Made by a program: the position numbers and the translations under genes
Source of the DNA: a virus
Strand: one strand, 5' to 3'
Length of the DNA stretch: 29,724 nucleotides
Virus record (IMG/VR): IMGVR_UViG_3300029684_000026
Span: 1-29,724 of that record
Notes under the pieces: model-generated
Told to the model about the DNA's origin: nothing
Database searches by the model: none
The model's input: only the letters and a program-made list of their open reading frames with translations
Part shown: one piece after another, positions 10,922 to 26,726 of the stretch
How positions within the stretch are numbered: the stretch's first letter is position 1
Layout of the letters: each line of letters starts with the position of its first letter

Positions 10922-10933
10922 TGGTGAAACGCG

Positions 10934-12498: not shown

Positions 12499-13160
12499 GA
12501 TTCGTTTCCGATTTGGGTGAGGTATGTTTCCGCGGCGCGCTGCGCCATTTGGTCCATCGTCGGCAGGATGCCAGGAGTAGGAGCAATCGTTACTTCCCGG
12601 CACAGGATATAGAGGACGTCTCCTGTTTTCGTTCCTTTGCTGAAAAGCTTGCGGGCCGCTTTCTTCCCGGTGGAGGACTGGGCTGTCTTGAGAATCAGGA
12701 CACCGGTTACATTTCCATTCCGTCCTCCATTTTTGGAGGGGATGAATTGCAAGTCCTCTTTGCGGAAGCCTGCGCTGTAAATGCTTCGGGTCCCTCCATG
12801 CCCTCGTGGCGCGTTGATGGTGGGGATGGCGAGGTTCTGAATCGGCTTGCCGGTGACTTCCGAAGTGCGTCCGGTGGGCCGCAGCGGGCCGCCCAGGTAG
12901 CCCTGCGTGCCTATCCAGTGCAGGCCGATGCCGCGCCAGGCAATGGAGACGCTGACGCCTTCGGCGGTTTCTTCCATGCTGGTGGCGTCCGCCGCGGCGT
13001 CGTAGTAGTCCTTGCCCTGCTGGCGCAAGGTTTGCTGAATCATCAGACTGAGGGCAACGCCCGCCTTGCGGATGGCGGTCTTGTGCAGGGCGGCGGACGG
13101 CGCCATGTCGGCAAACGCGCGGTTAATCGCGGATTGGTCGATGTGGACGGTTACAGCCAT
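12495..13160 (-). CDS. Putative head-tail joining / virion morphogenesis protein
   Basis: The ATG at 13158-13160 ('MAVTVHID') is preferred over the longer Arg-rich extension in the ORF track. Called by position. Confidence 0.4.
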   Translation of the reverse strand: MAVTVHIDQSAINRAFADMAPSAALHKTAIRKAGVALSLMIQQTLRQQGKDYYDAAADATSMEETAEGVSVSIAWRGIGLHWIGTQGYLGGPLRPTGRTSEVTGKPIQNLAIPTINAPRGHGGTRSIYSAGFRKEDLQFIPSKNGGRNGNVTGVLILKTAQSSTGKKAARKLFSKGTKTGDVLYILCREVTIAPTPGILPTMDQMAQRAAETYLTQIGNES

Positions 13161-14287
13161 TTGACGGGTAAAACGTAAGGGGTTGACAGTTCCACATTGA
13201 GGGCTCCGGCGACGTCTTCCACTTTCCTGACGTGCCCGGAGGTAATGGGATAGGTGAATTCCCCCTCTTCCTTTGGGGAAACGGGGATATACTGGCGGGA
13301 GGACGCGGCGGCCACGTCTGCGGGCCGGGCGTACCAATCACCTTCCGGCTCGGAAGCCAGACGGTCCAGCAGACGGTCCAGGTAGAGGGCCGCCAGCGTT
13401 CCGGCCACGGCTCCCCCGGCTGCCGCCAGGCTGAAGGCCTGGGCCTGGCGCAAGGGGATCTCTTCCGGGAAATCCCCGGACAGGACGTCCGCCAGTTCCG
13501 CGTCCGTGTAAGGGCGCGTGCCGTTCGGGTCCGTGTAGGCAAAGGTGGTATTGCCGTCGTTCCCGGTCTTGACGCGCACGGCGTCTTTCAGGATGCGGCG
13601 GATCTTGTTCCTGTTGGATTCCGTCACGCCTTTGGCGTTGCTTTCCAAGGTTGCGTTGAAGCTGGGGGGAGCGGGACGGACGCGCGAAACCTCCAGTCCG
13701 GCCGCGCGGGCTTCTTCGGCTCCCACGGGGGCAATGTTCATGCCGGAAAGGTAATCGAAGGGAGGATAAGGCGTTCCGAAGCGCGAGAGGCGAATCCAGA
13801 TGTCGGAGGCCGCCAGGGCGTAGCCGACGGTTTCGCCGCGGATGAAACCAGAAGAAACTGCCTCCGTGGCTTCTTCTTCCAATCCGGCTCTGGCCCGGTT
13901 CCAGCGTTCGGCCCAGTAGCGGGGATCTTCCCGGCCCTGGGAGCGGTAAAATTTGAAGGCGGCCGTACTGTCGTCCTGTGTCCAGTTGTACCAGTTCCGG
14001 TAGCCGTGCGCCATGGCCGCATTGGTTTCCATGACGACCTGGATGCGGAGCCAGGATGACAAATCCTGAATGCCGCCCTGCCCCGTTGCCGGCGGTCGGT
14101 AGCCCTGCTGGCGCAGGGTTTCGCGGATGGACTGCTGCGCCTCTTCATAGCTCAGGGCGCCGGAGGCGACCTTCCCCGCCTTTTCCTCAAAGTCGGACAG
14201 GATAACGCCGGGCTCCACGCCGGACACGAAAAAGGCGCGTTCGGCGTAGTCGTTGGCGATCATCTCCATCTGGGCGGCGGTCATCAT
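13151..14287 (-). CDS. Hypothetical virion protein (weak Mu F / SPP1 gp7-like resemblance)
   Basis: 378 aa. 'RIQVVMETNAAMAHGY' and 'TPYPPFDYLSGM' are loosely reminiscent of head-morphogenesis proteins. Confidence 0.3.
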   Translation of the reverse strand: MMTAAQMEMIANDYAERAFFVSGVEPGVILSDFEEKAGKVASGALSYEEAQQSIRETLRQQGYRPPATGQGGIQDLSSWLRIQVVMETNAAMAHGYRNWYNWTQDDSTAAFKFYRSQGREDPRYWAERWNRARAGLEEEATEAVSSGFIRGETVGYALAASDIWIRLSRFGTPYPPFDYLSGMNIAPVGAEEARAAGLEVSRVRPAPPSFNATLESNAKGVTESNRNKIRRILKDAVRVKTGNDGNTTFAYTDPNGTRPYTDAELADVLSGDFPEEIPLRQAQAFSLAAAGGAVAGTLAALYLDRLLDRLASEPEGDWYARPADVAAASSRQYIPVSPKEEGEFTYPITSGHVRKVEDVAGALNVELSTPYVLPVKWL

Positions 14288-14760
14288 CGGTAGGTGCTTC
14301 TCATGGGGTTGAACCAGGGGCGCTGAGTGAAGCGCGGCATCATGTAGGCGGGGTCCGCCGGGGCGGCGCCGTCTACGCTTTCCGGCAGCATTTCGCCTCG
14401 TGCATAGCGGGCCAGCATCTCATCGGCCGATTCAGCGGCTTTCTGGCGCGTTTCGGTCAGGTTGATCTGGTAGCGCAGGTAAAGCTGCCGGATGATCAGC
14501 GGCCACGCCAGGGAGCGCATGCTCTGCGGGATGTCGTACATGCCGCTATTCTGGAGCGATTGCCGCAGGGCGAGGTTGTTGGCCAGCGCCCCGCGGATGG
14601 TCATGCAGACATCGTTGACCGCCTCCATCATGACATCCCGGTAGTCCAGGCTGCGCTGTTCCCCGGCTGTTACCAGGGCATCGCGTTCGGCGGTGTTGAG
14701 ACCGAGCAGCCGATCGGCTTCGTCGGTGGAAATCGTGGACCAGGCAGGAAAGGCGGACAT
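14284..14760 (-). CDS. Head-tail connector-like protein (Mu gp36 / DUF1320-like)
   Basis: 158 aa, immediately downstream of the capsid gene. 'IPQSMRSLAWPLIIRQLYLRY...ADEMLARYARGEM' parallels the DUF1320 layout as recalled from memory. Confidence 0.45.
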   Translation of the reverse strand: MSAFPAWSTISTDEADRLLGLNTAERDALVTAGEQRSLDYRDVMMEAVNDVCMTIRGALANNLALRQSLQNSGMYDIPQSMRSLAWPLIIRQLYLRYQINLTETRQKAAESADEMLARYARGEMLPESVDGAAPADPAYMMPRFTQRPWFNPMRSTYR

Positions 14761-14779
14761 GATGGAGGCGGGGTTGGGG

Positions 14780-15664
14780 TTAATCGCCGGTGGCCGTCGC
14801 GTCGATGCGGACGATGGCGCTGGGGTTCGTCAACTTGGTCAGCGAGTAGACGCGGTTGGTGACGAGCGTCAAGGCCGGCGTCGGCTTGTATTCAGTGATG
14901 ACTTCGCGGCGAAGCTTGCCGGAAAGCCCGAAGGTTTTGACGGCGGAGGCGTCGAACTGCGTCGGGGAGTCTTCCTTGTACAGGACGTAGACTTCGTTTT
15001 CCATGATGGTTTTCGCGTCGCCGGAAGCGTCGCGGTACGGCATGGAGGCGATGTAAATATCCCGGATGGGCCGGATCAGAGCCATGCGAAGCAGGTCTTC
15101 ATTGAACAGGCCGACGCTGTTGAAGGAAACCACCTGACGCGCCAGCGGATTGGACCTAAGTAGCTGCCATGCGTTGACGCCGAAGACAATCGTGGTCGGG
15201 AAGTGTCCGGTTGCGGCGTTGATGGACAGGATTGCCTTGTCCAGCTGATCCAACGGGTTTTTCTGCGGGTTGGCCCAGTCGCCCATCCCGGAAGCGGCCG
15301 GAAGCTGGCTCATCAGAAGCTTGGCGCGTTCGTATTCGTACGACGTCACAAACTGGGATTCGATGAGTTTGTATTCCGCCAGGGTGATGGCCTGCGCCTT
15401 TTCCCGGTTGACGCCCAGCAAGGCGTCAGGGATGGGCAGCGTCAAGCCGTAGCCCTGAAGGGTGTCGGTTTCGTTTCTGCCGCGCAGGACGGTCTGGCGG
15501 GGAGGTTCGCCCGGTCCCACCTGGATGGGCTGGACGGTGAAGGCCGATTCCGTGTCCCAGACCTTGTACTGGAAATTCAGGTCATAGACCGGGACGATCG
15601 GAGCGATGCGGCTGATGATGGAGTTCTCTTCGGTGTTCCCGGACCCCGCGGAATAGGAGGTCAG
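14780..15664 (-). CDS. Major capsid protein (HK97-fold, lambda gpE / Mu gpT-like); start uncertain
   Basis: Follows the protease/scaffold and decoration genes. The first canonical start is GTG at 15520, but the frame is open to 15727 and encodes protein-like sequence ('IISRIAPIVPVYDLNFQYKVWDTESAF'). 15664 is an in-frame CTG. Confidence 0.7.
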   Translation of the reverse strand: MTSYSAGSGNTEENSIISRIAPIVPVYDLNFQYKVWDTESAFTVQPIQVGPGEPPRQTVLRGRNETDTLQGYGLTLPIPDALLGVNREKAQAITLAEYKLIESQFVTSYEYERAKLLMSQLPAASGMGDWANPQKNPLDQLDKAILSINAATGHFPTTIVFGVNAWQLLRSNPLARQVVSFNSVGLFNEDLLRMALIRPIRDIYIASMPYRDASGDAKTIMENEVYVLYKEDSPTQFDASAVKTFGLSGKLRREVITEYKPTPALTLVTNRVYSLTKLTNPSAIVRIDATATGD

Positions 15665-15740
15665 GACATCGGTGAACTGAACGGCGGAGCAAAATGGAGT
15701 AGCCCTTGTTCTTGGTCTTTCTGTTGGTTAGGGTTAATAG

Positions 15741-16172
15741 TTAGGCTGCGGCAACCTGGTAGGACGGGACGAATCCGATTTCCACAAGGCCCTGTTCCCA
15801 CTGGGCATGAATAACGCGGGCATAGACGGTGTCGCCGCTGGCGGCGGCCTTCCATGTCCCGTTGGCCGTGATGGTGACGGGCGTTCCGGCGTTGATGGTT
15901 CCGGGCGTGTCGGATAGAGCCGCCTTGATGAGGCCGGCATACATGCCGACGAGCGCGGCGACGCAGGTTCCCTTGTTGGGCTGTCCCTGCAGGACGACGC
16001 CTAGCAGCTGCTCCTGCGTGGGAATAGCGGACAACGGAGTTCCGACAAATTCAGGGATGTCGGGATTCGCGGTCAGCGCCACGACGGTTCCTTCCTGTCC
16101 GCACAGGTCAACGCCTTCCGGGGCGTTGAAATAGACGATGGCGCTTTTCTGGGTTACGTTGAGTGATGGCAT
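15741..16172 (-). CDS. Head decoration protein (DUF2190-like)
   Basis: 143 aa, Gly/Ala/Val-rich, located between the protease/scaffold and capsid genes. Confidence 0.5.
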   Translation of the reverse strand: MPSLNVTQKSAIVYFNAPEGVDLCGQEGTVVALTANPDIPEFVGTPLSAIPTQEQLLGVVLQGQPNKGTCVAALVGMYAGLIKAALSDTPGTINAGTPVTITANGTWKAAASGDTVYARVIHAQWEQGLVEIGFVPSYQVAAA

Positions 16173-16193
16173 TGGTTTGATCAGGTTGAATAA

Positions 16194-17306
16194 TTAACGT
16201 TGGGCGGAGACGATGAAGCCCTCTTCGGTCGCCTTCTGGTAGGCGTCATAGCGCTTCATGCCGTCCTTGATGAGTTCGTTCACGCGGTTGTTGAATCCGT
16301 CAATGGATTCCTTCTTGCGGAATGGGTCAGGGGGATTCAGCGTCGCGCGGCGGTTCAGAGGCGTCCTTTTCGGCAGTTCCTTCTTTTCCTCCTGATCCGG
16401 TTTTTTGGGCGGAGTCTGGCGGTTGAGCGCACGGATAAAAGCGTTCAGCGCGGCGGGGCTTTCCCGGAGAGAGTTTTTCAGCTCTTCCCGGCGTTCTTCC
16501 GTGAATTCCTCGCGTTCTTCCTCGTCCAGCGCGTTTTCGTACGTGCTGACGGCGTCGTCCACTTCGGCGTTCACGTGGTCTTTCTCACGCTTTTCCAGCG
16601 AGAGCAGTTCATCAAGGCGTCCGAGGATCGCCCTGCTCATGTCGTCGGTGCCGTCAAATTCGACATCCAGCTTGTCAAGCAGGGAGTCGAACAGGGCCCG
16701 CTGGGCCTTGTCCATCTCCTTGGACGGATATTCTCTATCGTCGTTTTCCATATTGGTTTTCTGGGTTGTTTCCCCCTCTTCGGGGCTTTTGGGGTCGCCC
16801 CCGGCCTCGTCGGAGGCGGGGGAAGTCTGTCGGTTGACCAGAGGCCGCTTTCCCTTGATGCGCGGCCGGTTGGTCAGAGCGAAGCCGGTCAGACGCGACG
16901 GGCGGTAGACGCCGTCCGTCAAAGTCATGCCTTCGCCATATTCGGTGGATGATTGCGTGTATTCCTTGTCCTGCAGCATCTTCAGGCCGCGCGGCGTCCA
17001 TTCGATGAACCCGTAGAGTTCCAGCGTGCCGGAAGGGTCGCGGTAGGTGTCCAGCCTCTTGAGCCATCCGAGGGCCCGAGTATCGCGGGAAAGGTCGTGG
17101 CTCAGGTGGTCGCCGTCGATGAGCATGCCCGGGCCGTCAAAGGTGCGGGCGTTGAAGTCGTCCACCATGTCCCGGATCGCCTGCTCGTCGATGCGCAACA
17201 CGGCGGGACCCTCGCCGTAGTCAACGTCATGGTCTCCGCTTTTCTCAACGTGGAACCAGCCGTTGGCGGGTCGGGACAGGTCATTGATTTGTTTCGTGCT
17301 GATCAT
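16194..17306 (-). CDS. Mu gpI-like prohead protease / scaffold
   Basis: 'MLIDGDHLSH...ALGWLKRL...LELYGFIEWTPRGLKMLQDKEYTQSSTEY' parallels the Mu-like_Pro pattern (iDyeH..AaGWi..Lwa.veWT...eyry.SP). The C-terminal half is charged and scaffold-like. Confidence 0.65.
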   Translation of the reverse strand: MISTKQINDLSRPANGWFHVEKSGDHDVDYGEGPAVLRIDEQAIRDMVDDFNARTFDGPGMLIDGDHLSHDLSRDTRALGWLKRLDTYRDPSGTLELYGFIEWTPRGLKMLQDKEYTQSSTEYGEGMTLTDGVYRPSRLTGFALTNRPRIKGKRPLVNRQTSPASDEAGGDPKSPEEGETTQKTNMENDDREYPSKEMDKAQRALFDSLLDKLDVEFDGTDDMSRAILGRLDELLSLEKREKDHVNAEVDDAVSTYENALDEEEREEFTEERREELKNSLRESPAALNAFIRALNRQTPPKKPDQEEKKELPKRTPLNRRATLNPPDPFRKKESIDGFNNRVNELIKDGMKRYDAYQKATEEGFIVSAQR

Positions 17307-18729
17307 CGGTAAATCCTTTCATGAGTCCGGCGTAAATCATTTGCTGAAGCTGTTCATAAGCATCGGGCGGAATGAGTGCTTTTTCCGGTTCCCTGTTGGC
17401 CGCCGCCGTCACCGGAACGGGGTCCTGCGTGTCCTCGATCGACATGCCGATCTTTTCTTCAATCTCGGTCTTCTCGGGGCGGACGCCTCCGTCGGCAAGC
17501 GCGGCGATTTCCTCGGCTTTCTGCAGCGGGGTCTGGACGGTGTCAAAAGTGATGTGGAGGCGGGCCAGCGGTTCGCCGTCTCCCAGGACAAGCGGGCTGA
17601 TGGCGGCGTTAAAAGCTTCGGCGACCTTGGAACAGACCGCGGAGACGACCGAATTCCAGCTGTCCGTGTGCGCTCCCCCGGCCAGCGTGCCGGATCCTGA
17701 TTCATTCAGGACGGTCAGAGTGCCGGCCATTACAAACCGCACCTGGTCCTTGTCGGACATGTTGATTCGGGATAGGAAATAGTTTTCGTTGATGTTGGAG
17801 GCTTTCAACGGTTCGGCGGTGCAGCCGGGAGGAAGCACAATGGAGGCTCCCGATTTGAGTTCCTCACAGGCCCGTTCCAGCGCGTCCATGACGGCGGCGC
17901 TCGCGTCCTTGGGCGCCGTGATGATGACCGGGGCGCTCCCGTAGCGGTCCATATGGTTGTCCCACGTAACTTTGGCGTGATTCCGCTCAAAAGAGGCGCG
18001 GGTTGCCGGAAAAAGAATGGGGTTCCGGTGCTCCATGACCACGAGCGTTTCTTCCTCTACGCTCTCGCCCGTGTCGACCCCGATGTAGCACTGGGGATTA
18101 AACTGCCATTCGTTCAGCTCTCCGGGCCGCACCCAGTATCGCTGCGGGATGAATTCAAAGCGGCGGCCCCAGGAATCTTCGATGTATTGGAGGTGGGCGT
18201 ACCCGTAAAACATAGCGGAGGCCAACTGCCCAAAGGCCTGTTGAAGTCCGGTGACGGAGTGATAGAATTCTTCCAGCGCGTTCTGCTGACGCTGGGCTTC
18301 CGGGCTGTCGTCCGCGGCGTCAATCTTCCATCCCTGCATGGAGACGCTTTCAATGAGCCGGGAATAGAGCATGCCCATCAAGCCGTCCGAGTAGATGACC
18401 TCGTCCCAAATGAGCATTTGGCGGGCAAAGGCTCCACGCCGCGCTTCGTTCCGGGCGTCAATCAGGGTTTGCAGGTCGGCGCCCTGTAACGGGTCCCAAT
18501 ATTCGTACCATTGAGGCTGGTTAGGCTTCCGGCTCTGTTCCGTCAACGCTCGCCGGGCCAGGTCCGTTTCAAGCTCCTTGATTCTGGTCTCCTGTTGGGC
18601 TACCAGCTTCGGGGCGTTGAGGATATTTTTGACGGCGTTAAACCTGAGGCTAAAGAAAAGGTGGTTGCAGGGGAAGGAGTTGGACCTTCGATTCGGGGAC
18701 AGGAACCCCGCGTGATACCGTTTCACCAC
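17281..18729 (-). CDS. Portal protein (possibly Mu gp29 / DUF935-type)
   Basis: 482-aa ORF between TerL and the protease/scaffold. Only a GTG start is available, and the first ~30 aa look non-native. Confidence 0.6.
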   Translation of the reverse strand: MVKRYHAGFLSPNRRSNSFPCNHLFFSLRFNAVKNILNAPKLVAQQETRIKELETDLARRALTEQSRKPNQPQWYEYWDPLQGADLQTLIDARNEARRGAFARQMLIWDEVIYSDGLMGMLYSRLIESVSMQGWKIDAADDSPEAQRQQNALEEFYHSVTGLQQAFGQLASAMFYGYAHLQYIEDSWGRRFEFIPQRYWVRPGELNEWQFNPQCYIGVDTGESVEEETLVVMEHRNPILFPATRASFERNHAKVTWDNHMDRYGSAPVIITAPKDASAAVMDALERACEELKSGASIVLPPGCTAEPLKASNINENYFLSRINMSDKDQVRFVMAGTLTVLNESGSGTLAGGAHTDSWNSVVSAVCSKVAEAFNAAISPLVLGDGEPLARLHITFDTVQTPLQKAEEIAALADGGVRPEKTEIEEKIGMSIEDTQDPVPVTAAANREPEKALIPPDAYEQLQQMIYAGLMKGFTDDQHETNQ

Positions 18730-18782
18730 CCTGCGATTGCTTACATATCGTCATATATTGATATCTTAATATGTTGTCAACC

Positions 18783-20120
18783 CTAATATCTCCCGTAAGC
18801 GCGTTTTGATGACACGGGACGGGCGTACCAGGCTCCCAGCGTCCGCGCCAGTCCGCTGTTCCGGCGCGCGTGCCAGGCCATCACAAGGGCGTCGGCCCGG
18901 TCTGGGGAACGAACGCCCCGCTTTGCCATATCTTCTTTGCTTTCAATGCGGACGCGGCCTATTGCGTCGGTTTGGAGTCGTGGAGCAACCAGCTGCTCAA
19001 TCGTATCCTCGTCAATGTCGAGGATGAGTTCTTTTTCTTCGATGGCGCGGGCGAGAGCCCGCCATGCTTGGGCGCGGAGGTTGACAAAGGCTTGTGTGTC
19101 ATCTGCCGGGAAGCCTCCCCGGTAGGAGTGCACGGGGAAACCCTCAGCCCGGAAGTCGTCAATGATGGGAAGCCCCAGTCCGTCGCCGTCGGCAAAGATG
19201 CGGTCGGCAGAGATGCCGAGTTCGGCGGCCTTTCGGCGGAAACGTCCGCGCGCTCCTACAGTGTCTGGGTCGGCCCAGTGGTCGGCGATGAAAAAACGGT
19301 TGCCCTGTCCGGCCGCGAAGACATTCTCATCACCCCCGGCGGCGAAGTCAAAGCCGCCGCAGGTCTCCCCGGTGTCCAAAAAGGGAGGCGGGTTGTTGAG
19401 CAGCTCCATGATGGCGCGGCGGGAAATGACGGATTGCCCGTCAAGGTCCGTGAATTCGCCGAGGATGGCCGAGCGGTAGAAGGAGGACTGTTCGCCGTAT
19501 TCTTTTTTCAGGCGTTCGGCCTTGCCTGGATCGTTGATTTCGATGTGCGGGCAATCCTCGTATTTAACGCGGATTTTGTAGTAGAGGGATGAATTTTTGT
19601 GGAAGCAGTCGTAAAAGGTTCCGGAATCGGCACCCGGCGACGAGGTGATGAACGCGTTGAAGAGCGTGCAGCGGGAAACAGCGGTGAAGATGGAGTCGGG
19701 AATGGTCTTGGCTTCGTCCAGGACGTAAAAGACGGGATCCACGTCGGGCGAGATTTTCGGATGCCACCCTTCTGCGCGTCCCGCGTTGTCGGTTGAGAAT
19801 CCCACGGCAAATCCTCCTTCCGGCGTGCGGATTTCGGTTTTGTTGAATGTCCAGCCGTCAAAGAAAGGGTTATCCATATAGCGGCGAAGCGCGGGAAAGA
19901 GCTGTTTTTCTACCTGCATCCATGATGATGACGTGACTGGCACCTGACCCCGAGGAAAATAGGTAAGGAAACACAGGATTGCGGGCGCAATGGATAGGCT
20001 CGTCTTTCCCGATCCGTTCGGAGCAACCATGGCCACGCTTCGACCTCCCAGCCTCACCTTTCCAAGAAGCAATGCCTTGATGGCCTCGATTTGCCAGGGA
20101 TAAGGATCGAGTCCGAGAAT
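18783..20120 (-). CDS. terL: Terminase large subunit; start uncertain
   Basis: Walker A 'APNGSGKT' and Walker B 'VFYVLDEA'. The first canonical start is TTG at 20072, but 'ILGLDPYPWQIEAIKA' lies upstream in the same frame. 20120 is an in-frame ATT. Confidence 0.85.
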   Translation of the reverse strand: MLGLDPYPWQIEAIKALLLGKVRLGGRSVAMVAPNGSGKTSLSIAPAILCFLTYFPRGQVPVTSSSWMQVEKQLFPALRRYMDNPFFDGWTFNKTEIRTPEGGFAVGFSTDNAGRAEGWHPKISPDVDPVFYVLDEAKTIPDSIFTAVSRCTLFNAFITSSPGADSGTFYDCFHKNSSLYYKIRVKYEDCPHIEINDPGKAERLKKEYGEQSSFYRSAILGEFTDLDGQSVISRRAIMELLNNPPPFLDTGETCGGFDFAAGGDENVFAAGQGNRFFIADHWADPDTVGARGRFRRKAAELGISADRIFADGDGLGLPIIDDFRAEGFPVHSYRGGFPADDTQAFVNLRAQAWRALARAIEEKELILDIDEDTIEQLVAPRLQTDAIGRVRIESKEDMAKRGVRSPDRADALVMAWHARRNSGLARTLGAWYARPVSSKRAYGRY

Positions 20121-20162
20121 GTGACGGAGGAAGAAGCTGACGGGGAGATGGTTCCTGCTCGA

Positions 20163-20642
20163 TTAAGGGTGGAGTTTGCCGGCAATGGTTTCCAGCGCGG
20201 TTTTCTCGTCTTCCCGGAGCTGGGCAAGCTGCTCGGGGTCCAGGGTGATTTTGCGTTCCAATGGAGCGCCGGGAACGCCCGCTACATCCTGCCGGACTCG
20301 GTCGCCGAATTTCTCGGGGGCAAAACGGGCGGCAACTTTCAGCCGCGTTTCAATGGCGAGCTTCTTGGCAGCGACGGAGGCGGATCCGCATTCGGGGTCG
20401 AGGGCAACCTGGGCAGCGGCATCTGACAAAGACTGACACTCGTCGAGCATGGCTTCTGACTGCGCTTCCCGCGCGCGTTGAATGAGTTTACAAAACTCTT
20501 CCCGTTCGTGCCTCCATCTCCAGACAGTTAAAACCTCCGGCATGTGATCGTCCGAGCAAATGGACTTCATCGTTTCCCCGTTGGCTAAACGGGAGGCTAT
20601 CTCGTCGGCTAATGCCTCCGTATAGAGGCTGGGCCGTCCTAT
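20163..20642 (-). CDS. terS: Terminase small subunit; start uncertain
   Basis: 'GRPSLYTEALADEIASRLANGETMKSICSDDHMPEVLTVWRW...EF...ARE.Q' matches a common TerS N-terminal HTH pattern. The first ATG is at 20570, inside that pattern. 20642 is an in-frame ATA. Confidence 0.7.
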   Translation of the reverse strand: MGRPSLYTEALADEIASRLANGETMKSICSDDHMPEVLTVWRWRHEREEFCKLIQRAREAQSEAMLDECQSLSDAAAQVALDPECGSASVAAKKLAIETRLKVAARFAPEKFGDRVRQDVAGVPGAPLERKITLDPEQLAQLREDEKTALETIAGKLHP

Positions 20643-20748
20643 TTTCTTGTTGGCGGTAGGTGATTGCTTCTTTTTCCTGCAGGTCTACTCTAGAGGACAA
20701 GTAGCTAGCAAATCAAGCACTCTGTTTGTTCATTCCTTTCTGGGCCCA

Positions 20749-20777
20749 TTGACAAATCTGACCCTCTCACATATACA
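20749..20777 (+). promoter_or_regulatory. Sigma70-like promoter for the plus-strand island
   Basis: TTGACA (20749-20754), a 17-nt spacer, then TATACA (20772-20777). The GTG start at 20784 lies about 7 nt downstream, so the transcript may be leaderless. Confidence 0.4.
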
Positions 20778-20783
20778 GATTTT

Positions 20784-21302
20784 GTGAAAAAGTGTCCTAT
20801 ATGCGGCAAGGATGTTCCGCCGCGCTACGGAGCGCGGGAAAGCGTATACTGCTCCCGCGCTTGCCTCAAGGCACACTATGACGCCGCCTGGGAAACTATC
20901 ACCTGCCCCGTGTGCGGAAAGGAATTCCGCGCTAAAAAACTCTTTCGGCGGAAACATTGCTCTTATCCTTGCGCGAATGCAGCCCAGAAGGGGCGGAAAA
21001 TCACGTCAGAAGCCTTTCAGGAGGCTTGCAAGCATCGGGGAGTTCCCGGCCCCAGGAAGCACCCCAGAACAGGGAAATTTGAGACAAATTGCCATGCAAA
21101 GATATGGCTGCTGGAATCCCCGGATGGAGAGAAAGTCACGGCTCGGAATCTCAAACTCTACATGATAGACCGGTACGGCGAAGAAAAGGGGAAAAAGGTC
21201 TATAAGCTCCTGGTTTGTGCTGCACAACGCTTCCGCAAATGCGGACATGGCAGCGGCGCCGGATGGCGGGTACTTGCCGCCCCTGCCGTCCCGAAGGAAT
21301 AA
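20784..21302 (+). CDS. Double zinc-ribbon protein with a homing-endonuclease-associated-like C-terminal module
   Basis: 172 aa with a GTG start. 'CPICGK..x17..CSRAC' and 'CPVCGK..x14..CSYPC' form two zinc ribbons. The C-terminal 'KIWLLESPDGEKVTARNLKLY...GAGW' resembles modules recalled from free-standing phage endonuclease-like ORFs. Confidence 0.4.
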   Translation: MKKCPICGKDVPPRYGARESVYCSRACLKAHYDAAWETITCPVCGKEFRAKKLFRRKHCSYPCANAAQKGRKITSEAFQEACKHRGVPGPRKHPRTGKFETNCHAKIWLLESPDGEKVTARNLKLYMIDRYGEEKGKKVYKLLVCAAQRFRKCGHGSGAGWRVLAAPAVPKE

Positions 21303-21333
21303 AAAAGGGCAGCCCCGAAGAACCGCCCTTTTT
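21302..21333 (+). terminator. Weak A/T-flanked hairpin, possible terminator
   Basis: AAAAAGGGC (21302-21310) pairs with GCCCTTTTT (21325-21333). The loop is 14 nt, so the structure is weak. Confidence 0.35.
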
Positions 21334-21503
21334 AAGGGAATGAGCGTTTCCGCTCGTGCTGATCTTGTGATCGTTTTAATCCACAGCCCCGGAGGGCTGA
21401 CGTGTTCCTAGAAAGAACAAATTACTTCTCTCATATTCTGCGCCAGGCCGCAAGCAAAAACGGAATGACAACTTTTTTCACCTTTTTTCATTTTTTCTCT
21501 TGC

Positions 21504-21526
21504 GTTACTATAAATTTTATAGTAAC
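21504..21526. promoter_or_regulatory. Perfect 23-bp palindrome, operator-like
   Basis: GTTACTATAAA-T-TTTATAGTAAC, with 11-bp arms verified base by base. Lies 75 nt upstream of the ATG at 21601. Confidence 0.6.
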
Positions 21527-21600
21527 TTAATTTTGTTGACGGGAGGTAAGGGACCGAACGAAGACATAATCCAAATAACAAAACTAGAAAGAACAAGACA

Positions 21601-21924
21601 ATGAACGATAACAAAATCATCACCACGGAAGACGGAGAAGAAATCAACCTGACCGCTCTTGAACGTGAATTTGGCAGCTACAAGTTTGAAGGCAAGACCT
21701 ACTATGCAGCGCGCCAGATGGAATACACCAACAGGGTTTTCCCTGGCTCCTATGCGGACAAATACGAAGACGGCAGCTACATGGAAGAATGGTCTGCTCC
21801 CGGCTATGATGCAGAAGGGAACAAGGTTGAAATCTTCATGGTCTTTGAACAAATGACGGGCGAAGAAATTGAAGGAGAAAACCTCAACTGGACGCAGGAC
21901 GCTTCCCGCGTTGAAGCTCACTAA
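21601..21924 (+). CDS. Small highly acidic protein
   Basis: 107 aa with an ATG start. Hand count gives 24 D/E versus 9 K/R. Confidence 0.6.
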   Translation: MNDNKIITTEDGEEINLTALEREFGSYKFEGKTYYAARQMEYTNRVFPGSYADKYEDGSYMEEWSAPGYDAEGNKVEIFMVFEQMTGEEIEGENLNWTQDASRVEAH

Positions 21925-21933
21925 ATAACCCCC

Positions 21934-21954
21934 AGGGGCGGCAAAGCCGCCCCT
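21934..21954 (+). terminator. GC-rich hairpin (terminator or attenuator)
   Basis: AGGGGCGGC-AAA-GCCGCCCCT forms a 9-bp stem and is followed by CCTTTCTC. It ends 11 nt before the ATG at 21966. Confidence 0.5.
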
Positions 21955-21965
21955 CCTTTCTCACT

Positions 21966-23270
21966 ATGACCGCACAAGAATTTATCGACTGGCTTCAAAC
22001 TGCCAACAATCTTCCAAATCCTACCCAAGCTGTAAAAAGGGCCGCGCAGATGATGCGGGTGACGGAAGATGCTGTTTGGAAGTGGCTAAATACTAAAAAA
22101 CCACATCCCACGCCTGAATACATGCAATTGCTCATGGAGTTATTGCATGAAAAATACCGAGAAAAGAGGTTTCACCGCATTCTTTCTCACGAACAGCGTG
22201 AAGAAATGCGGTCCATGTTGGGCAAAAAACCTGATCTGGAAATCGCCGAGCTACTCGGAATAGCGCGCGTCACGGTCCAGACTGAACGCTATAAATTAGG
22301 TATCAAAAAGTATTGCAGCCCTGAAGCAATCCGCATCCAACACGATGAAGAGCTTATTGCAGTGCTCGGAAAAATTCCTGACTCGGAGTGTGCCAAGAAG
22401 TTTGGATACTCAAATTCCAGAGTAGCCTACCTTAGAAAGAAATTAGGGATTAAGTCATATAGGGGGCCGCGTAAACCCCGTCAGCCACGAGACCCAAATA
22501 AACCACACAAGAAAAAAGAGTATCCCGAAGAGTTAATTAACATGCTTGGAAAGACCCCGGATGATGAAATTGCTAAAAAATTCGGTTATTCCAAGGCAGG
22601 AATTGCGCTTATTAGAAAAAAGATGGGCATTCCATCATTATCTGATACTAAATTCCCCGAAGAGAAACGCGAAGAAATGCTATCCATGCTTGGGAAAGTT
22701 CCTGATAGCGAAATTGCTGAAAGGCTTGGAATATCGCTTAATGTTGTAGCGCGGAACCGTAGAAAATTAAAAATTGCTCCAGCTCCATACTCTCCCATTA
22801 AGGATGCGGACAAGGATATAATTCTTAATTTATTGGGAAGAGTATCAGATTTAAAAATTGCAAAAAAAACAGGGTACAGCGTATATGTAATTAAAAAATT
22901 TAGAGAACAGAACAAAATTAAGCCTTTCAGTAAAAGCATTTTAGAAAGATTTTCACCGGACCAACGTAAAAAACTCTTATCTATGCTTGGGAAAGTTTAT
23001 GATAGAGTAATAGCCGAAAAATTTAATATTGATGACGAGGCAGTAAGAAGAATTAGACAGAAATTGAATGTTCCGGCATTACGTGAGGAAAAAAGCTTGC
23101 AAGAAACAATAGAAGGGGACGAATACATTAAATCCCTGCTGGGCACAATGACTGATAAAGAAGTCGCTAATAAAACAGGCAAATCAATACAAGTTATCGG
23201 AAAAGCAAGGAGAAAATTAAATATCCCGGCGTTTGATACAAGGGGGCGGTCTACAAAGAAACAATCTTGA
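21966..23270 (+). CDS. Protein with seven tandem HTH modules (sigma70 region 4 / GcrA-like) plus an N-terminal HTH-like segment
   Basis: 434 aa, AT-rich. Carries seven copies of the pattern L(L)GKxPDxEIAxKFGxSxxxVxxxRRKLxI(P), listed in the findings. Confidence 0.65.
   Translation: MTAQEFIDWLQTANNLPNPTQAVKRAAQMMRVTEDAVWKWLNTKKPHPTPEYMQLLMELLHEKYREKRFHRILSHEQREEMRSMLGKKPDLEIAELLGIARVTVQTERYKLGIKKYCSPEAIRIQHDEELIAVLGKIPDSECAKKFGYSNSRVAYLRKKLGIKSYRGPRKPRQPRDPNKPHKKKEYPEELINMLGKTPDDEIAKKFGYSKAGIALIRKKMGIPSLSDTKFPEEKREEMLSMLGKVPDSEIAERLGISLNVVARNRRKLKIAPAPYSPIKDADKDIILNLLGRVSDLKIAKKTGYSVYVIKKFREQNKIKPFSKSILERFSPDQRKKLLSMLGKVYDRVIAEKFNIDDEAVRRIRQKLNVPALREEKSLQETIEGDEYIKSLLGTMTDKEVANKTGKSIQVIGKARRKLNIPAFDTRGRSTKKQS
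22191..23225 (+). repeat. Intragenic array of seven ~40-aa HTH repeat units
   Basis: The repeats are also visible at nucleotide level, for example atgcttgggaaagtt at about 22684 and about 22981. Confidence 0.8.
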
Positions 23271-23296
23271 TCTTTCCAAGATAAAAACGCGCCCCC

Positions 23297-23332
23297 TATA
23301 CGAGATTCCAGGGGGTATACGAGATTCCAGGG
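23297..23332. repeat. Tandem 17-bp direct repeat TATACGAGATTCCAGGG x2 (2-bp spacer)
   Basis: Copies at 23297-23313 and 23316-23332 are identical. They lie in the convergent gap between the plus-strand island and the DnaC-like gene. Confidence 0.9.
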
Positions 23333-24121
23333 CTATTCCCGGAGGTTGTAGTTGATCTCACGGTACGATTGCCAATCACACGTGATGATGGTGCCGCATA
23401 GATGGATGCGTGAAACAATGGCCGGGCCGAGGCGATCCTCCAGGGCGGCGGGGCTGTAGTTGGCAATGATGATGGTCGGCTTGCCGTTCTGGTGCCGGTA
23501 GTCAATGAGCCGTTCCAGCGCCGGGCCTGTAAAGTCCGTGTCCTTTACCTCGTGATACTCGTCCAGGACCAGCAGATAAGGCGACTTGTAGCGGGCCATG
23601 ACAGAGGATTCAGAGCCGCCGCCGTTGAACGTCTCCCGCAGGGCCATCGTGTAATCATAGGCCTTGGTATAGAGGACGCGCTTCTTGCGCCGGTACATGA
23701 CGCGGGCAAGAAACGTGCTTAAAACCGTTTTCCCGGTGCCGTAGCGTCCGTTTAGTACAATGATACTCCCAGGAGTCAAAACAAGGCGATAGGCATCACG
23801 GAGGGCCTTCTTCCATGGTTCTCCGGTCACTTCGTCGAGGCAATCAATCGCCCGGCGAGGAAAGCCTCGGTCAACCAGGCCCAGGCGTTCATAGGTTGCC
23901 TTGCGTTCTTCCTCCCGCTGTTTCTCGGCGGCGAGCGCTTCCGCTTCCAGTTCTTCAATGCTTCTTCCGTCATCCGTGGCAAGCGCTGTCATGGATGCCA
24001 AGAGGCTTTCAATGTCGGCACCTTTGAGGGCGTGCCGGGCGTCAATGGGGTCGTCAGTCTGTCCAGAGTTCATCTCTTCGTGATGGTTTAGGTGTTGATT
24101 TTGATGCGGTTCCCGCGGCAT
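23333..24121 (-). CDS. DnaC/IstB-like AAA+ helicase loader
   Basis: Walker A 'GRYGTGKT' and Walker B 'LLVLDEYHE'. Lies downstream of the replication organiser. An alternative ATG is at 24073. Confidence 0.75.
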   Translation of the reverse strand: MPREPHQNQHLNHHEEMNSGQTDDPIDARHALKGADIESLLASMTALATDDGRSIEELEAEALAAEKQREEERKATYERLGLVDRGFPRRAIDCLDEVTGEPWKKALRDAYRLVLTPGSIIVLNGRYGTGKTVLSTFLARVMYRRKKRVLYTKAYDYTMALRETFNGGGSESSVMARYKSPYLLVLDEYHEVKDTDFTGPALERLIDYRHQNGKPTIIIANYSPAALEDRLGPAIVSRIHLCGTIITCDWQSYREINYNLRE

Positions 24122-24809
24122 TGGCGGGCTTTAAGCCAGCTTCGGCCGCGTTGTTGCGGGCCCAGGTGGCGGCGTATTGGCGGGCCAGGGGCCGCCAGTC
24201 CGCCAGGGGGATGCCGTGCTTGTTTTTCCAGCCAACGGCGGCTTGCTCGTTAAAAAACCGTTCGGCGCACCGGGTAAGCTCGTCTCCGAGCGGGTGCAGC
24301 ACTTGAGCGGCCATGAAGCGGTCAATTTCGGACACGTCCTGCGGAAATTGGCAGACTTCGCGCCCGGTTGTAGTTGGTGTAGTAGTATTATCTTCTCTTC
24401 TCTTCTCTGGTAACGGTTTTTGTAACGGTTCGGGCGTTACATCTGTAACGGTTTCATCGTTACGTCCTTTTCGGTGATTCGCAACTCGGCGGTTCGTATT
24501 GGCCCTATTCTTAGCGGTTTGGCCATTATGGCGGTCAAAATTGGGGATTGAAAGGAGTCCATTGCGTCCATTCAACCAGCCGACTTTGACAAGCCCAGCG
24601 GCGAAACCGGGGCAGAATACGAGACGGTCGAGAAACGAATTTGTAACGGTGATAGCGTTACCAGAGACGGATTGTTGATCAGCCCAAATCCAAAGGCGCA
24701 GCAGCTTTCCAACCACGGCATCCTGATCAATGCCGAGCATGTCGGCCAACTTCACCACTTCCGGCTTGTCGGGTGTTGTGTGTTCAACCTTTATCCAGTC
24801 TCCGGCCAT
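24054..24809 (-). CDS. Replication organiser / initiator-like protein
   Basis: The ATG at 24807-24809 gives 'MAGDWIKVEHTTPDKPEV...', typical of phage replisome-organiser N-termini. The gene contains an iteron cluster in its linker region. Confidence 0.5.
   Translation of the reverse strand: MAGDWIKVEHTTPDKPEVVKLADMLGIDQDAVVGKLLRLWIWADQQSVSGNAITVTNSFLDRLVFCPGFAAGLVKVGWLNGRNGLLSIPNFDRHNGQTAKNRANTNRRVANHRKGRNDETVTDVTPEPLQKPLPEKRREDNTTTPTTTGREVCQFPQDVSEIDRFMAAQVLHPLGDELTRCAERFFNEQAAVGWKNKHGIPLADWRPLARQYAATWARNNAAEAGLKPANAAGTASKSTPKPSRRDELWTD
24410..24463. repeat. Iteron cluster, candidate origin of replication
   Basis: Five copies of the GTAACG core fall within 54 bp, three of them as (T/G)GTAACGGTT and two inverted. 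The cluster is flanked by (TCTTC)3TCT at 24391-24408. A further inverted pair lies at 24643-24661. Confidence 0.6.
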
Positions 24810-24814
24810 ATATA

Positions 24815-25345
24815 CTATATCCCCTCCTTCTCTTTTGCTTCTGCGCCAAATGCAGGTGAGAGCTGTATTTTCCTGCCTTGAACAGTATTGATTTTTAGCG
24901 GCTTCTGGATGTACAGGCATGCGGTCAAAAGGCTCCTTTCAGCGGCGTAGTTTGCCTCACGGAAATGTCTGCTGTACCGAACTATCCGAACCCGTCCGCC
25001 AGGGAGGACATACAGTAATCCCCACCGTTCCGGCAGGTCATCTTCTGTGATGATCCCCGGCTCACAGATGTAGTATCGGCAATACCCCATACCCTTTTGA
25101 GGACGGAGGCGGAACGGCTTTTTGAGGTCTGCCAAAAAATCCGCCCGGCTGGTTTTAGCCTCAACGAGGATGCTATACGATCCCTTGAAACCTATAGCGT
25201 CGGGCTGCTCGTCCGTAACGATGCAGTTCGGTTCCGCGATCGCCACCCGGCAACGGGCAGAGCCCATGAGCCAGCGTTCAGCAATTTCGCATAATTCCCG
25301 GTGCGTCCGCGGGATTAAAGATGTTGGTTTACGCGCCATAATCAA
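24815..25345 (-). CDS. PD-(D/E)XK nuclease, MmcB-like
   Basis: 'PDAIGF...SILVEAKTSRADFLADLKK' provides the D...E-x-K motif. TTG at 25345, or ATG at 25339. Confidence 0.4.
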   Translation of the reverse strand: MIMARKPTSLIPRTHRELCEIAERWLMGSARCRVAIAEPNCIVTDEQPDAIGFKGSYSILVEAKTSRADFLADLKKPFRLRPQKGMGYCRYYICEPGIITEDDLPERWGLLYVLPGGRVRIVRYSRHFREANYAAERSLLTACLYIQKPLKINTVQGRKIQLSPAFGAEAKEKEGI

Positions 25346-26127
25346 AAAAGCGTCAGTTGGGGGTTGTAGTTAATCCACAGGCATTCCACACGTGGACTGC
25401 TCATGTTGGAAATGGTCTTGATGGAGTCCTTGTGCCAGCCCTGCAGGGCGGAGTTGTAAAGCTCGTTATCATAGCCGGACAACACCACCTTGCCCTGCAG
25501 CGTGACCAGGACGTTGAGCAAGCGCCGGTGATCGTCCTCCGTGTACTCATGGCTGTATCGCCCCGTCCTGGTGCGCGTGGCTGGCATGTAAGGCGGGTCA
25601 ACGTAGTGGAGTGTTTCCGGCCCGTCGTGGGCCTGTAAGACGTCAAGGGCGTCCCGGTTTTCCACGTGGACGTGCTTTAACCGCTGGGTGGCCAGCCGCA
25701 GAGTTTCCGGCAGCCGGTCCCAGTCGGTAGCCGGAGAAGGCACCCTGTTCCGGCTTACGAGTAAGCCGGAACGTCCATCCCTGAAAGAGTCGCTTGCAAT
25801 CCCCATCCAGGAGCGCACTAGCAGACGCCGGGCACGCTCCACGGCATCACCTGCAGGGGCGGAGTCGTTGAGCTCGTCACGGCTGTATGGGGTCAGCATG
25901 ACGGCCTCAAGCAGCCGTCCGGCGTCCTCACTGCGGAGGACGCGGAACAGGTTGACAATCTCGCCGTCTTTGTCATTGCAGATTTCCACCGGCGCCGGGG
26001 CCTTGTTGAGCAAGACACCCAGGCTTCCGCTGTATGGCTCCACATAGCAAGTGTGAGCCGGGAAATGCCGGATAATCCACGGGGCAAGGCGGTTTTTACC
26101 GCCTAAATATCGCAGTACGGCTTTCAT
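25342..26127 (-). CDS. Dam-type (D12 class) N6-adenine DNA methyltransferase
   Basis: 'LRYLGGKNRLAPWI', 'YVEPYSGSLGV' and 'HYVDPPY' match the class motifs. The ATG at 26125-26127 overlaps the upstream stop (ATGA). Confidence 0.85.
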   Translation of the reverse strand: MKAVLRYLGGKNRLAPWIIRHFPAHTCYVEPYSGSLGVLLNKAPAPVEICNDKDGEIVNLFRVLRSEDAGRLLEAVMLTPYSRDELNDSAPAGDAVERARRLLVRSWMGIASDSFRDGRSGLLVSRNRVPSPATDWDRLPETLRLATQRLKHVHVENRDALDVLQAHDGPETLHYVDPPYMPATRTRTGRYSHEYTEDDHRRLLNVLVTLQGKVVLSGYDNELYNSALQGWHKDSIKTISNMSSPRVECLWINYNPQLTLF

Positions 26128-26726
26128 AACCACTTCACAATAGTTTGATTGTTATATCCTTTGACCCAGTGAAACCAAGCGTAGGCAATGGCGCCGCCTT
26201 CGGTTTTGGAAAAATCCCCGTTTTTGGCGCAGGTCCGCCGCTCGCTGAATACCCACACGTCGGAGGGGGGGGCAACGTCGAACAACCGGCGCCGGGCCTT
26301 GCCCTCTAAAAACTGGAGACGCAGAAGCATCCAGACATTGGCTCCATCCTTGACGCAGGCAAGCGCACGCTCGACAAATTCAAGGGCTGTGGCGTAGGGA
26401 GGATTGGTCATAATATCCACGTCTCCTATCTCGCCATCGTCGAACTCCCACAAGAAATCTTGTACGCAGGAATCAGGACATCCACGGTCAACAATGTCGG
26501 TTGCACAGACTTCATGCCCCCGCTCCCGCAGGACATTGACGATATGACCAGCTCCGCAGGCTGGTTCCCATACCCGCTGACGGAGAGGCGCGCCAGCGTT
26601 GAGCAGATCCCGCACCATGTCCGGATCGGTGGCGTAATAGTCTTCCCTCGGCCTTTCACCGGTGGCGAGATAGGATGCTCCCAGCGTAGCGCCAAGCGTC
26701 CTTTTATTCCCTGTCCAGTCCTTCAT
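26124..26726 (-). CDS. Small N6-adenine DNA methyltransferase (NPPY motif)
   Basis: Motif I 'VWEPACGAGH' and motif IV 'MTNPPYA'. 200 aa. Confidence 0.7.
   Translation of the reverse strand: MKDWTGNKRTLGATLGASYLATGERPREDYYATDPDMVRDLLNAGAPLRQRVWEPACGAGHIVNVLRERGHEVCATDIVDRGCPDSCVQDFLWEFDDGEIGDVDIMTNPPYATALEFVERALACVKDGANVWMLLRLQFLEGKARRRLFDVAPPSDVWVFSERRTCAKNGDFSKTEGGAIAYAWFHWVKGYNNQTIVKWL

Follow-up and report, generated by a model that had tools for sequence, protein, structure and literature searches.

A putative self-repressed, acr-aca-like accessory operon in a hypervariable slot of temperate Akkermansia phages

Introduction

Akkermansia muciniphila is a leading next-generation probiotic. 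Most of its strains carry a type I-C or II-C CRISPR-Cas system, and others carry BREX or restriction-modification. IMG/VR record IMGVR_UViG_3300029684_000026, the 29,724-nt stretch analysed here as a whole and called the window, belongs to a temperate phage or prophage of Akkermansia. Outside one region, all of its long open reading frames (ORFs) with family support lie on the minus strand, as an original prediction from the letters of the window had stated for the phage genes in general. In that region, between the small terminase gene terS and the gene for a DnaC-like loader, three ORFs lie on the plus strand and encode proteins of 172, 107 and 434 amino acids (g1, g2 and g3). What is a group of opposed genes doing between packaging and replication? 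The original prediction took 20676-23332 as a three-gene island of the moron type, expressed from the lysogen and serving defence, anti-defence or regulation. We propose that the locus holds a self-repressed accessory operon resembling the operons of anti-CRISPR (acr) and anti-CRISPR-associated (aca) genes, placed in a hypervariable slot of temperate Akkermansia phages and probably devoted to counter-defence, a function read from sequence; the proposal as a whole stands, in our judgement, about evenly between right and wrong. Its parts differ in firmness. That the locus is a variable, self-regulated accessory cassette is likely; that its payload acts in counter-defence is a less secure step, which we put a little short of an even chance.

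Occupancy of the slot in related phages

Related loci, numbered here with the prefix L, were collected by protein look-ups and two IMG/VR scans and were mapped by tblastn. A plus-strand cassette between terS and the replication genes was found in about 30 distinct contigs, all of which share the Mu-type head and terS/terL module. The replication module is of three types: a DnaC/initiator pair at 85-100% identity, a version at 40% identity, or the unrelated 378-aa Rep of the type found in Akkermansia phage DTMo-2021a (CP084202). The order within the slot is a promoter and leader with a palindrome, one to three small acidic payload genes, a terminal gene for a Cro-like helix-turn-helix (HTH) protein, one to six copies of a 17-mer and the convergent replication gene. 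In most contigs the terminal HTH protein has 66 aa.

DTMo-2021a, a separate replicon in the assembly of a pure culture, shares 83-84% DNA identity with positions 10114-20680 and 24806-25369 of the window. It has no cassette: identity of 84% runs up to 20680 and resumes from 24806, and its Rep gene directly follows terS. L011 has the same block, running from the start codon of g1 through the end of g3 at 81-89% DNA identity, in another part of its genome: on one side is the late operon with its endolysin end, on the other an S24 cI-like repressor gene, whose strand the block shares.

Comparison among these relatives shows the architecture of the cassette, its variability, its dispensability and the co-variation of its HTH protein with its operator. 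As judged from the same comparison, the region is one filling of a hypervariable slot and not a fixed three-gene island. The synteny check that the original prediction had called for thus broke up the supposed unit: g1 is optional, g2 with the HTH gene forms the recurrent core, and the low-G+C part is only the repeat extension of g3. The left edge also had to be given up, because 20676-20783 overlaps a conserved in-frame 5′ extension of terS. What remains of the moron idea is accessory DNA that is absent from DTMo-2021a, varies in payload, recurs in L011 and has predicted control elements of its own, without being one unit.

The composition had been described as about 30% G+C at 22801-22860 against about 70% in the backbone. 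The low value was found (18 of 60 positions). The backbone G+C is 0.573, with 0.677 in the highest 300-nt tile, and g1 (0.557) resembles it. The intergenic promoter region (0.416), g2 (0.481) and the g3 repeats (0.358-0.439) deviate, so that the base composition expected of a moron is seen in these three segments (0.36-0.48 vs 0.573) and not in g1.

A candidate operator that tracks the terminal HTH protein

As had been noticed from the letters, the intergenic region contains an operator-like palindrome. It is a perfect 23-bp palindrome, GTTACTATAAATTTTATAGTAAC (GTTACTATAAA-T-TTTATAGTAAC; 21504-21526, both strands), of a kind expected 0 times by chance, and it is unique in the window. No further copy was found in the 29.7-kb window, in 10-20 kb flanks, in 0.7 Mb of related DNA or near the promoter-like region of terS. 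Each locus has one palindrome, and L048, which has two such units, has two.

Three types of palindrome, 21-23 bp long and with constant flanks, occur among the relatives, and the type tracks one residue (K, Q or E) of the recognition helix of the HTH protein. Type A, the type of the window, has the core TTACTATAAATTTTATAGTAA and was always accompanied by the helix WKWL, at 14 loci and in proteins of five lengths from 66 to 728 aa. Type B, with the core ACTAAACATTGTTTAGT, goes with WQWL (20 loci) and type C with WEWM (1 locus), these numbers being counts of loci and not of independent events. A fourth, imperfect palindrome variant in L064 is paired with a fourth helix. L011 and L021 at first appeared to be exceptions; both hold an internal or C-terminal WKWL domain. 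The co-variation of palindrome and helix, together with the single operator per locus, indicates local autorepression by a dimeric HTH repressor, and we infer that the cassette HTH protein binds the palindrome and represses from it. Restriction of the operator to the cassette argues against a role as a general late-gene regulator. Nor was the outcome found that the original prediction had set against its own reading, namely a conserved late-gene regulatory module: each locus has a single operator, and none lies by the promoter region of terS.

In the window the HTH domain belongs to g3 (21966-23270, plus strand, 434 aa), of which it occupies residues 1-66 (21966-22163, plus strand) with the recognition helix ...AVWKWL. 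The domain is Cro/YdaS-like and gave weak, sub-threshold Pfam matches to YdaS_toxin, P22_Cro and HTH_23. Residues 1-60 are 53-56% identical to the stand-alone 66-70-aa terminal proteins of most relatives, an identity from which g3 appears to be the 66-aa gene extended by a low-G+C repeat array. That array, residues 72-434 (22179-23270, plus strand; G+C 0.36-0.44), is a basic, lineage-specific extension of seven tandem HTH repeats of ∼50 aa with the consensus LGKxPDxEIAxxxGxSxxxVxxxRxKLGI. The repeats match HTH_23 (2.6e-10) and phrog_323 (3e-26; annotated as transcriptional regulator). The original prediction had correctly counted seven HTH units in this product, and the N-terminal Cro-like HTH comes in addition to them. 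Variants of the g3 type have 311, 434, 535 or 728 aa, and a 237-aa version carries the domain at the C-terminus. More distant homologues, with 28-30% identity, occur as single genes in chromosomal settings that are unrelated. A PADLOC search with g3 gave only noise from the repeated HTH.

Promoter and leader module

The palindrome is part of a predicted promoter/operator/leader module (21408-21596, plus strand) that lies between 13-bp direct repeats CTAGAAAGAACAA (21408-21420 and 21584-21596). Upstream of the module is a small conserved hairpin, CAGCCC-CGGA-GGGCTG (21384-21399, plus strand), which also occurs 5′ of g2 in the Mu-like prophage L002 and in L025. L002 has one copy of the 13-bp repeat and lacks the promoter module; this single copy, set beside the flanking repeats of the window, suggests that the module was inserted as a unit.

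Across relatives the constant module reads TTTTCATTTTTTCTCTTGC-[palindrome]-..TTGAC-GGGAGGTAAGGGACC...AGAAAGAACAAGACA-ATG. The palindrome is located between a -35-like (TTGC..) and a -10-like (TA..) element, and in the type B loci, which have TTGCTA-17-TATATT, it fills the spacer and overlaps the -10. From this arrangement the module is predicted to be an active promoter. The A-rich leader GGGAGGTAAGGGACC...AGAAAGAACAAGACA (21541-21600, plus strand) is conserved 5′ of whichever payload gene comes first (37 loci) and has no stable fold. An Rfam scan of 20400-23600 at E<=1 returned nothing.

g2 and the alternative payload genes

g2 (21601-21924, plus strand) encodes a protein of 107 aa which, as had been pointed out, is very acidic (pI 4.2, net charge -15) and belongs to an uncharacterised family. 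No match was found in Pfam, PHROG, PADLOC or NCBIfam. The AlphaFold2 (AF2) model had a pLDDT of 89.7, and Foldseek searches with it against PDB and BFVD gave no match at E<=0.001; the best was an uncharacterised protein of Salinivibrio phage SMHB1 (E 4.9e-3, TM 0.56). A profile search gathered 177 clusters at E<=0.001, mostly of 85-110 aa and some with unrelated extensions. Compared with PDB sequences, Pfam and PHROGs, the profile of this wider family gave nothing credible. tblastn with members of the g2 family found no plasmid match and, among phage genomes, only Paenibacillus phage BN12. A ribbon-helix-helix domain fused to the g2 relative P0121 was considered and was not confirmed by Pfam.

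A GC-rich hairpin between g2 and g3 (21934-21954, plus strand) is a candidate intra-operon attenuator or 3′-end stabiliser. Its presence had been predicted, and its stability of -19.2 kcal/mol (z = -4.4) was equalled in 0 of 200 shuffles. It was found in 7 diverged loci, with compensatory change in 2 pairs.

The genes between the leader and the HTH gene differ among loci. The sets found were g2 alone; a pentapeptide-repeat protein with g2; an 85-aa protein with g2; the 85-aa, pentapeptide and 102-aa proteins together; and the pentapeptide with the 102-aa protein. The payload proteins have a pI of 4.2-5.6, the alternative ones are 85-126 aa long, and the intergenic gaps measure 15-45 nt. The pentapeptide-repeat payload was recognised by Pfam (9.2e-22) and was the exception in the NCBIfam search, which was otherwise uninformative. 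The pentapeptide-repeat fold is known as a DNA mimic from Qnr and MfpA.

The pairing of g2 with a small homologous HTH gene extends beyond the slot. L002, a Mu-like Akkermansia prophage, has the pair where its early region ends, adjoining a DNA methyltransferase gene. L065 has the pair too; besides L002, the settings in which it occurs are a more distant Mu-like element and a low-G+C relative that keeps the whole promoter module. g2 relatives without a following small HTH gene occur in L039 and in the lysogeny/accessory region of BN12; the more distant relatives of g2 are those of BN12 and of an uncultured phage, in the latter among early/replication genes.

Some loci contain additional units. 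Between terS and the main cassette, L043 and L051 carry a second unit that encodes a ∼93-aa protein and a 196-235-aa acidic protein, the latter ending in a related HTH with the helix VWRWL. L048 combines two type B operators with a 291-aa payload.

g1, a neighbour with zinc ribbons and an AcrVA3-like domain

g1 (20784-21302, plus strand, GTG start) encodes a basic protein of 172 aa (pI 9.8). The double zinc ribbon that had been predicted is formed by two CPxCGK...(F/Y/H)CSxxC motifs at residues 4-27 and 41-63, and the Cys ligands are invariant among 12 homologues. Residues ∼82-172 form a C-terminal domain like that of AcrVA3 and I-HmuI. With a profile of the 12 homologues, residues 82-127 match residues 4-49 of PDB 9kja (E 2.7e-7; the single sequence gives E 1.4e-4), the label anti-CRISPR AcrVA3 for 9kja being that of the Foldseek entry. 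The common motif is G.ETNCHAK.W.L..P.G......NL, of which the N-L pair is N122 and L123 of g1. R130 and W161 are also invariant in the 12 homologues and have no place in the alignment to AcrVA3. The structure search that the original prediction had proposed was carried out on models of g1 and g2 and gave no significant match for either; for g1 (AF2 model, pLDDT 79), I-HmuI ranked first and AcrVA3 (9kja) fifth in PDB, the latter with E 0.97 and TM 0.49. According to the published structure of AcrVA3, its closest fold is the homing endonuclease I-HmuI (PMC13001698).

g1 also matched phrog_1271 (1.2e-8), over the non-catalytic zinc-ribbon part only (positions 178-248 of 361). Pfam detected no catalytic nuclease domain (HNH, GIY-YIG or LAGLIDADG) in g1 or g3, the PHROG matches of which cover zinc-ribbon and HTH parts. 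PADLOC had no match for g1 or g2.

The promoter that had been assigned to the island, TTGACA-17-TATACA (20749-20777, plus strand), exists as a string upstream of g1 and is a weak candidate. Its -10 lacks the invariant final T; the promoter scan did not list it because the last -10 base is A. The string ends 6 nt before the GTG start. It is kept only in relatives of the window type and is missing upstream of g1 in the other subgroup of relatives, and promoter-like matches around the region are at chance level (3 found vs 3.6 expected). g1 is followed, as had been reported, by a hairpin (21302-21333, both strands), which has the form of a bidirectional terminator with an A-tract, GC stem and T-tract, AAAAAGGGC...GCCCTTTTT. 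g1 is missing, or in one contig internally deleted, in L025, L026, L036 and L022, and relatives without g1 retain its last codons and the counterpart of the hairpin. On these features g1 is, by our reading, a separate and optional transcription unit upstream of the regulated promoter.

Outside this phage group, L007 (8001-9327) has a g1 homologue with 51% identity, paired with a family-less 241-aa protein and near a polyvalent protein of >6000 aa (ART-PolyVal, PBECR5), a DUF3800 protein and an RHS-repeat protein. Five database homologues of g1 (P0041, P0055, P0058, P0059 and P0062) start out in the +1 frame that overlaps g1 (MFRRATERG...) and switch to the g1 frame further on, which points to frameshifted or miscalled gene models, or to real frameshift variants in public assemblies.

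An invariant 17-mer closes the locus

The tandem 17-mers that had been noted in the convergent gap are two exact copies of TATACGAGATTCCAGGG (23297-23332, plus strand; starts 23297 and 23316, period 19) that reach the stop codon of the DnaC-like gene, against 0.06 expected. The 17-mer occurs with 0 mismatches in ∼30 related contigs, in one to six copies with a period of 17 or 19; IMG/VR contains no other occurrence. Not one letter changes even where the genes beside it diverge by as much as 60%. The array abuts the stop of the convergent replication gene with any of the three replication module types and is missing when the cassette lies elsewhere. The 17-mer is not coding and not palindromic, and it has no Rfam family and no stable hairpin. 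No further copies were present elsewhere in the window or its flanks. A role as origin iterons was considered and rejected: the sequence does not change with the initiator type, of which three adjoin it, and DTMo-2021a lacks it in spite of having one of the three.

Proposed operation of the locus and comparison with known systems

We envisage two units. The first would consist of g1 alone, closed by the bidirectional terminator. In the second, the promoter with the palindromic operator and the unstructured leader would drive g2, followed by the hairpin and then by g3. The N-terminal Cro-like HTH of g3 would bind to the palindrome in dimeric form and, at a sufficient level of the protein, switch the operon off, an autorepression that would follow the logic of Aca repressors. 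Aca regulators are defined by an HTH that binds inverted repeats overlapping the acr promoter (bioRxiv 10.64898/2026.07.27.740549). The target of the payload would be the host and not the development of the phage, and neutralisation of a host defence would be its most likely action.

The cassette resembles acr-aca operons such as acrIF1-aca1 of Pseudomonas phage JBD30 and acrIF8-aca2 of Pectobacterium phage ZF40. Those operons also have a stand-alone promoter with an inverted repeat, one to three small, often acidic and rapidly exchanged payload genes anchored by the regulator, and a conserved small HTH gene that comes last and is matched to the inverted repeat; they too are found at odd positions in temperate phage genomes, Mu-like ones included. 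Among the features by which such operons are recognised, the cassette has the co-directional terminal HTH gene, the inverted repeat in the predicted promoter and small same-strand payload genes in a prophage. Unlike them, it has no validated or homologous Acr inside the operon, its HTH in the window is fused to seven HTH repeats so that g3, with 434 aa, exceeds the usual regulator size, and the Akkermansia phage locus is closed by the invariant tandem 17-mer. In self-regulating Acr-HTH fusions (AcrIIA1, AcrIIA13-15 and AcrIF24), cited in PMC13001698 as its references 11 and 15, an autoregulatory HTH and a second part are likewise joined in one polypeptide at the operon end; the second part is a Cas-binding domain there, in contrast to the basic seven-HTH array of g3, which has no known target.

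g1 can be compared with AcrVA3 and AcrVA3.1 of a Moraxella bovoculi prophage. Both g1 and these proteins are prophage-encoded and resemble the DNA-binding part of I-HmuI. g1 differs by two extra N-terminal zinc ribbons, and the second half of its domain is not aligned by sequence: the conserved residues of AcrVA3 (∼111 aa) are N44, L45, R50, D60, N76, W92, K93 and W95, and g1 aligns to residues 4-49 only. The mechanism of AcrVA3 itself is unsettled. The protein has been reported as an indirect inhibitor that cleaves double-stranded DNA, and as toxic in vivo. AcrVA3.1, an orthologue of AcrVA3, also inhibits type I-C (PMC7556299), a type that occurs in all Akkermansia species, with II-C in a third of A. 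muciniphila (PMC8278651).

We infer a counter-defence role for g2 and g1 from the anatomy of the locus and one short homology. It is favoured because acr-aca operons are defined by this anatomy, in which a promoter with an inverted repeat matched to the regulator precedes interchangeable small acidic genes and an HTH gene in last place, and because of the AcrVA3-like g1, the action of AcrVA3.1 on I-C, the I-C and II-C systems of Akkermansia and the pentapeptide-repeat payload. Of the three roles offered by the original prediction, this anatomy favours anti-defence with a built-in regulator.

Several points weigh against this proposal. No payload has a relative of tested function, and g2 has no fold match. 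The AcrVA3 match covers 46 residues of a module that is also present in homing endonucleases, and g1 is basic and stands outside the regulated operon. The Cro/YdaS-like HTH is unassigned to Aca1-14 in a comparison made with Pfam profiles rather than Aca profiles, and no described Aca resembles a regulator of 434 aa and eight HTH units. The pairing of g2 with the HTH gene in three contexts could mean joint action of the two rather than payload and regulator. The -35/-10 elements of the window match at ∼6 of 12 positions, and promoter rules for Verrucomicrobiota are not established. The co-variation of palindrome and helix, finally, is counted over loci rather than over independent events.

Other explanations

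A payload that is expressed in the lysogen and excludes or aborts superinfecting phages is unlikely. The opposite strand, the own control elements and the lower G+C would suit such a host-protection moron, the L011 cassette and the BN12 g2 relative are on the repressor/integrase strand in a lysogeny region, and a fixed slot with variable payloads is also typical of prophage defence hotspots. However, the payloads are soluble acidic proteins of 85-126 aa without enzymatic, ATPase, nuclease or membrane domain, g1 and g2 have no PADLOC match and g3 has only HTH noise there, relatives of g2 are also located in early/replication regions of phages, and the AcrVA3-like domain points the opposite way. 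Classical morons of lambdoid and other temperate phages (in the sense of Juhala and Hendrix) share with the cassette the autonomous unit between modules, the absence from a close relative, the deviant base composition and a terminator of their own, in the cassette a predicted one; they are single genes and often co-directional, in contrast to a regulated multi-variant slot conserved across a phage lineage.

Somewhat less probable again is a developmental control module, either a secondary immunity region or a late-gene timer in which the HTH protein and g2 would work together as regulator and modulator, and in which read-through of the replication operon into the late genes would be gated by the convergent transcription of the cassette. 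The model for such a region is immI of P22 (mnt and arc-ant), which is similarly small, separately regulated, opposed in transcription, equipped with small DNA-binding repressors and situated among late/structural genes. A control module would account for the fact that nearly all relatives carry the HTH gene and promoter in this place and pointing away from terS, for the g2-HTH pair kept in three phage contexts, for the convergence with the replication operon at an invariant 17-mer array and for an eight-HTH DNA-binding g3 whose repeats match a family annotated as transcriptional regulator. Against this, DTMo-2021a manages without the cassette, unrelated genes replace the payload while the HTH stays, beyond the promoter of the cassette itself, neither the terS promoter-like region nor 10-20 kb of flanks contain an operator, and the cassette sits at a quite different position in L011. 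The cassette also differs from immI in that it has no antirepressor-like protein, its HTH is not a ribbon-helix-helix, its payload is variable and it is dispensable.

Two further explanations are very improbable. A pair of g2 and the HTH protein serving as type II toxin-antitoxin or in abortive infection would fit an operon of two genes whose HTH is autoregulating and whose operator is palindromic, and the HTH has weak matches to YdaS_toxin and antitoxin-type models; yet g2 has no toxin fold or family and an acidity unusual for a toxin, the 66-aa HTH protein is too short for a neutralising domain, and its partner is swapped for unrelated genes in relatives. A remnant of a free-standing homing endonuclease or other selfish element, its DNA-binding parts split over g1 and g3, leaves the regulated-operon anatomy unexplained and conflicts with the full-length conservation with invariant residues, a mark of selection, and with the lack of an HNH, GIY-YIG or LAGLIDADG catalytic domain, only zinc-ribbon and HTH portions being matched. 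It is suggested by PHROG families annotated as HNH/homing endonuclease (phrog_1271 for g1, phrog_7168 and phrog_59 for g3), a PADLOC 'HEase' match, I-HmuI as the top Foldseek match of g1 and the g1-g3 block at two genomic sites.

Taken further, the acr-aca-like operon could represent a previously unrecognised counter-defence hotspot of Akkermansia temperate phages, with a new Aca-like repressor family of the Cro/YdaS type that has at least three operator specificities and controls several new inhibitor families; we offer this extension tentatively, as a possibility that we hold more doubtful than counter-defence by the payload as such. The inhibitor families would be the g2 family (177 clusters), the pentapeptide-repeat DNA mimic and the 102-aa and 85-aa proteins, with the AcrVA3-like zinc-ribbon protein adjoining. 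The repressor of the window lineage would have grown into an eight-HTH protein, and the 17-mer array would be a dedicated DNA or RNA element that separates convergent operons as a roadblock or serves as linker when cassettes are exchanged via the RecT/YqaJ system of the phage. A literature search found no Acr or phage counter-defence gene described for Verrucomicrobiota. A fixed regulator and promoter with interchangeable small genes would allow guilt by association to be applied to four or five families of candidate inhibitors, of which one is widespread among other phages, and the repressor-operator set with three natural specificities might provide genetic parts for Akkermansia. If the payloads are not counter-defence genes, the locus is still a conserved, self-regulated exchange site with an invariant 17-mer array.

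Neighbouring genes and further observations

The minus-strand genes with family matches comprise RecT/YqaJ (27.7-29.3 kb), a phrog_631 protein, the replication initiator (24054-24920), the DnaC-like loader (23333-24121; phrog_50, 6.6e-31), terS (20163-20570; Pfam Sf6_terminase, 1.4e-21), terL, Mu-type portal, head and tail genes, and the endolysin (7047-7472). A D12-class N6-adenine DNA methyltransferase gene lies in the early region (25342-26133, minus strand; Pfam 2.8e-21) and represents a second potential anti-restriction function of the window.

The Pfam match of the called terS begins only at profile position 20. Upstream of it, a conserved in-frame N-terminal extension (20571-20700, minus strand), ..RKKKQSPTANKKIGRPSLYTEALADEIASRLANGET-MKSIC, encodes an Sf6-gp1-type HTH, and the synonymous changes across 17 related loci show its translation. 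The stretch from the in-frame stop TAG (20687-20685) down to the annotated ATG contains none of the start codons ATG, GTG and TTG, and the same holds for the 17 related loci. A conserved CCGCAGGAAAAAGAA motif and a -10-like hexamer are located just upstream of the extension. Translation could begin at a non-canonical start, involve a +1 shift at GAA-AAA-G or take place on a near-leaderless mRNA. ATG or TTG codons in the frame 1 nt upstream, considered as a frameshift start, lost weight since they coincide with -10-like TATAAT, TATGAT and TAGAGT. A sigma-70-like late-operon promoter is predicted at 20687-20716 on the minus strand (TTGATT-18-TAGAGT; TTGAAT-18-TATAAT in relatives such as L025). 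It is back-to-back with the region upstream of g1 and is kept even in DTMo-2021a, which has no cassette.

A tRNA-Arg gene (anticodon CCT) was predicted between terL and portal (18662-18735, minus strand), where it overlaps the start of the listed portal ORF. Downstream of the endolysin is a second low-G+C stretch (0.33-0.44; 3000-5500), with genes for a GYF_2-domain protein (3213-3617, minus strand) and a family-less 616-aa protein (3630-5480, minus strand). It is possibly another accessory or moron region. GYF_2 genes were found in L011 between the cI-like repressor gene and the cassette.

The initiator of L004 (8596-9717) is chimeric. The N-terminal half shares 86% identity with the initiator of the window (24054-24920), the C-terminal half 93% with the unrelated 378-aa Rep of DTMo-2021a (compared with L001 11748-12884). 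By these identities, the L004 gene is one with a recombination joint inside it.

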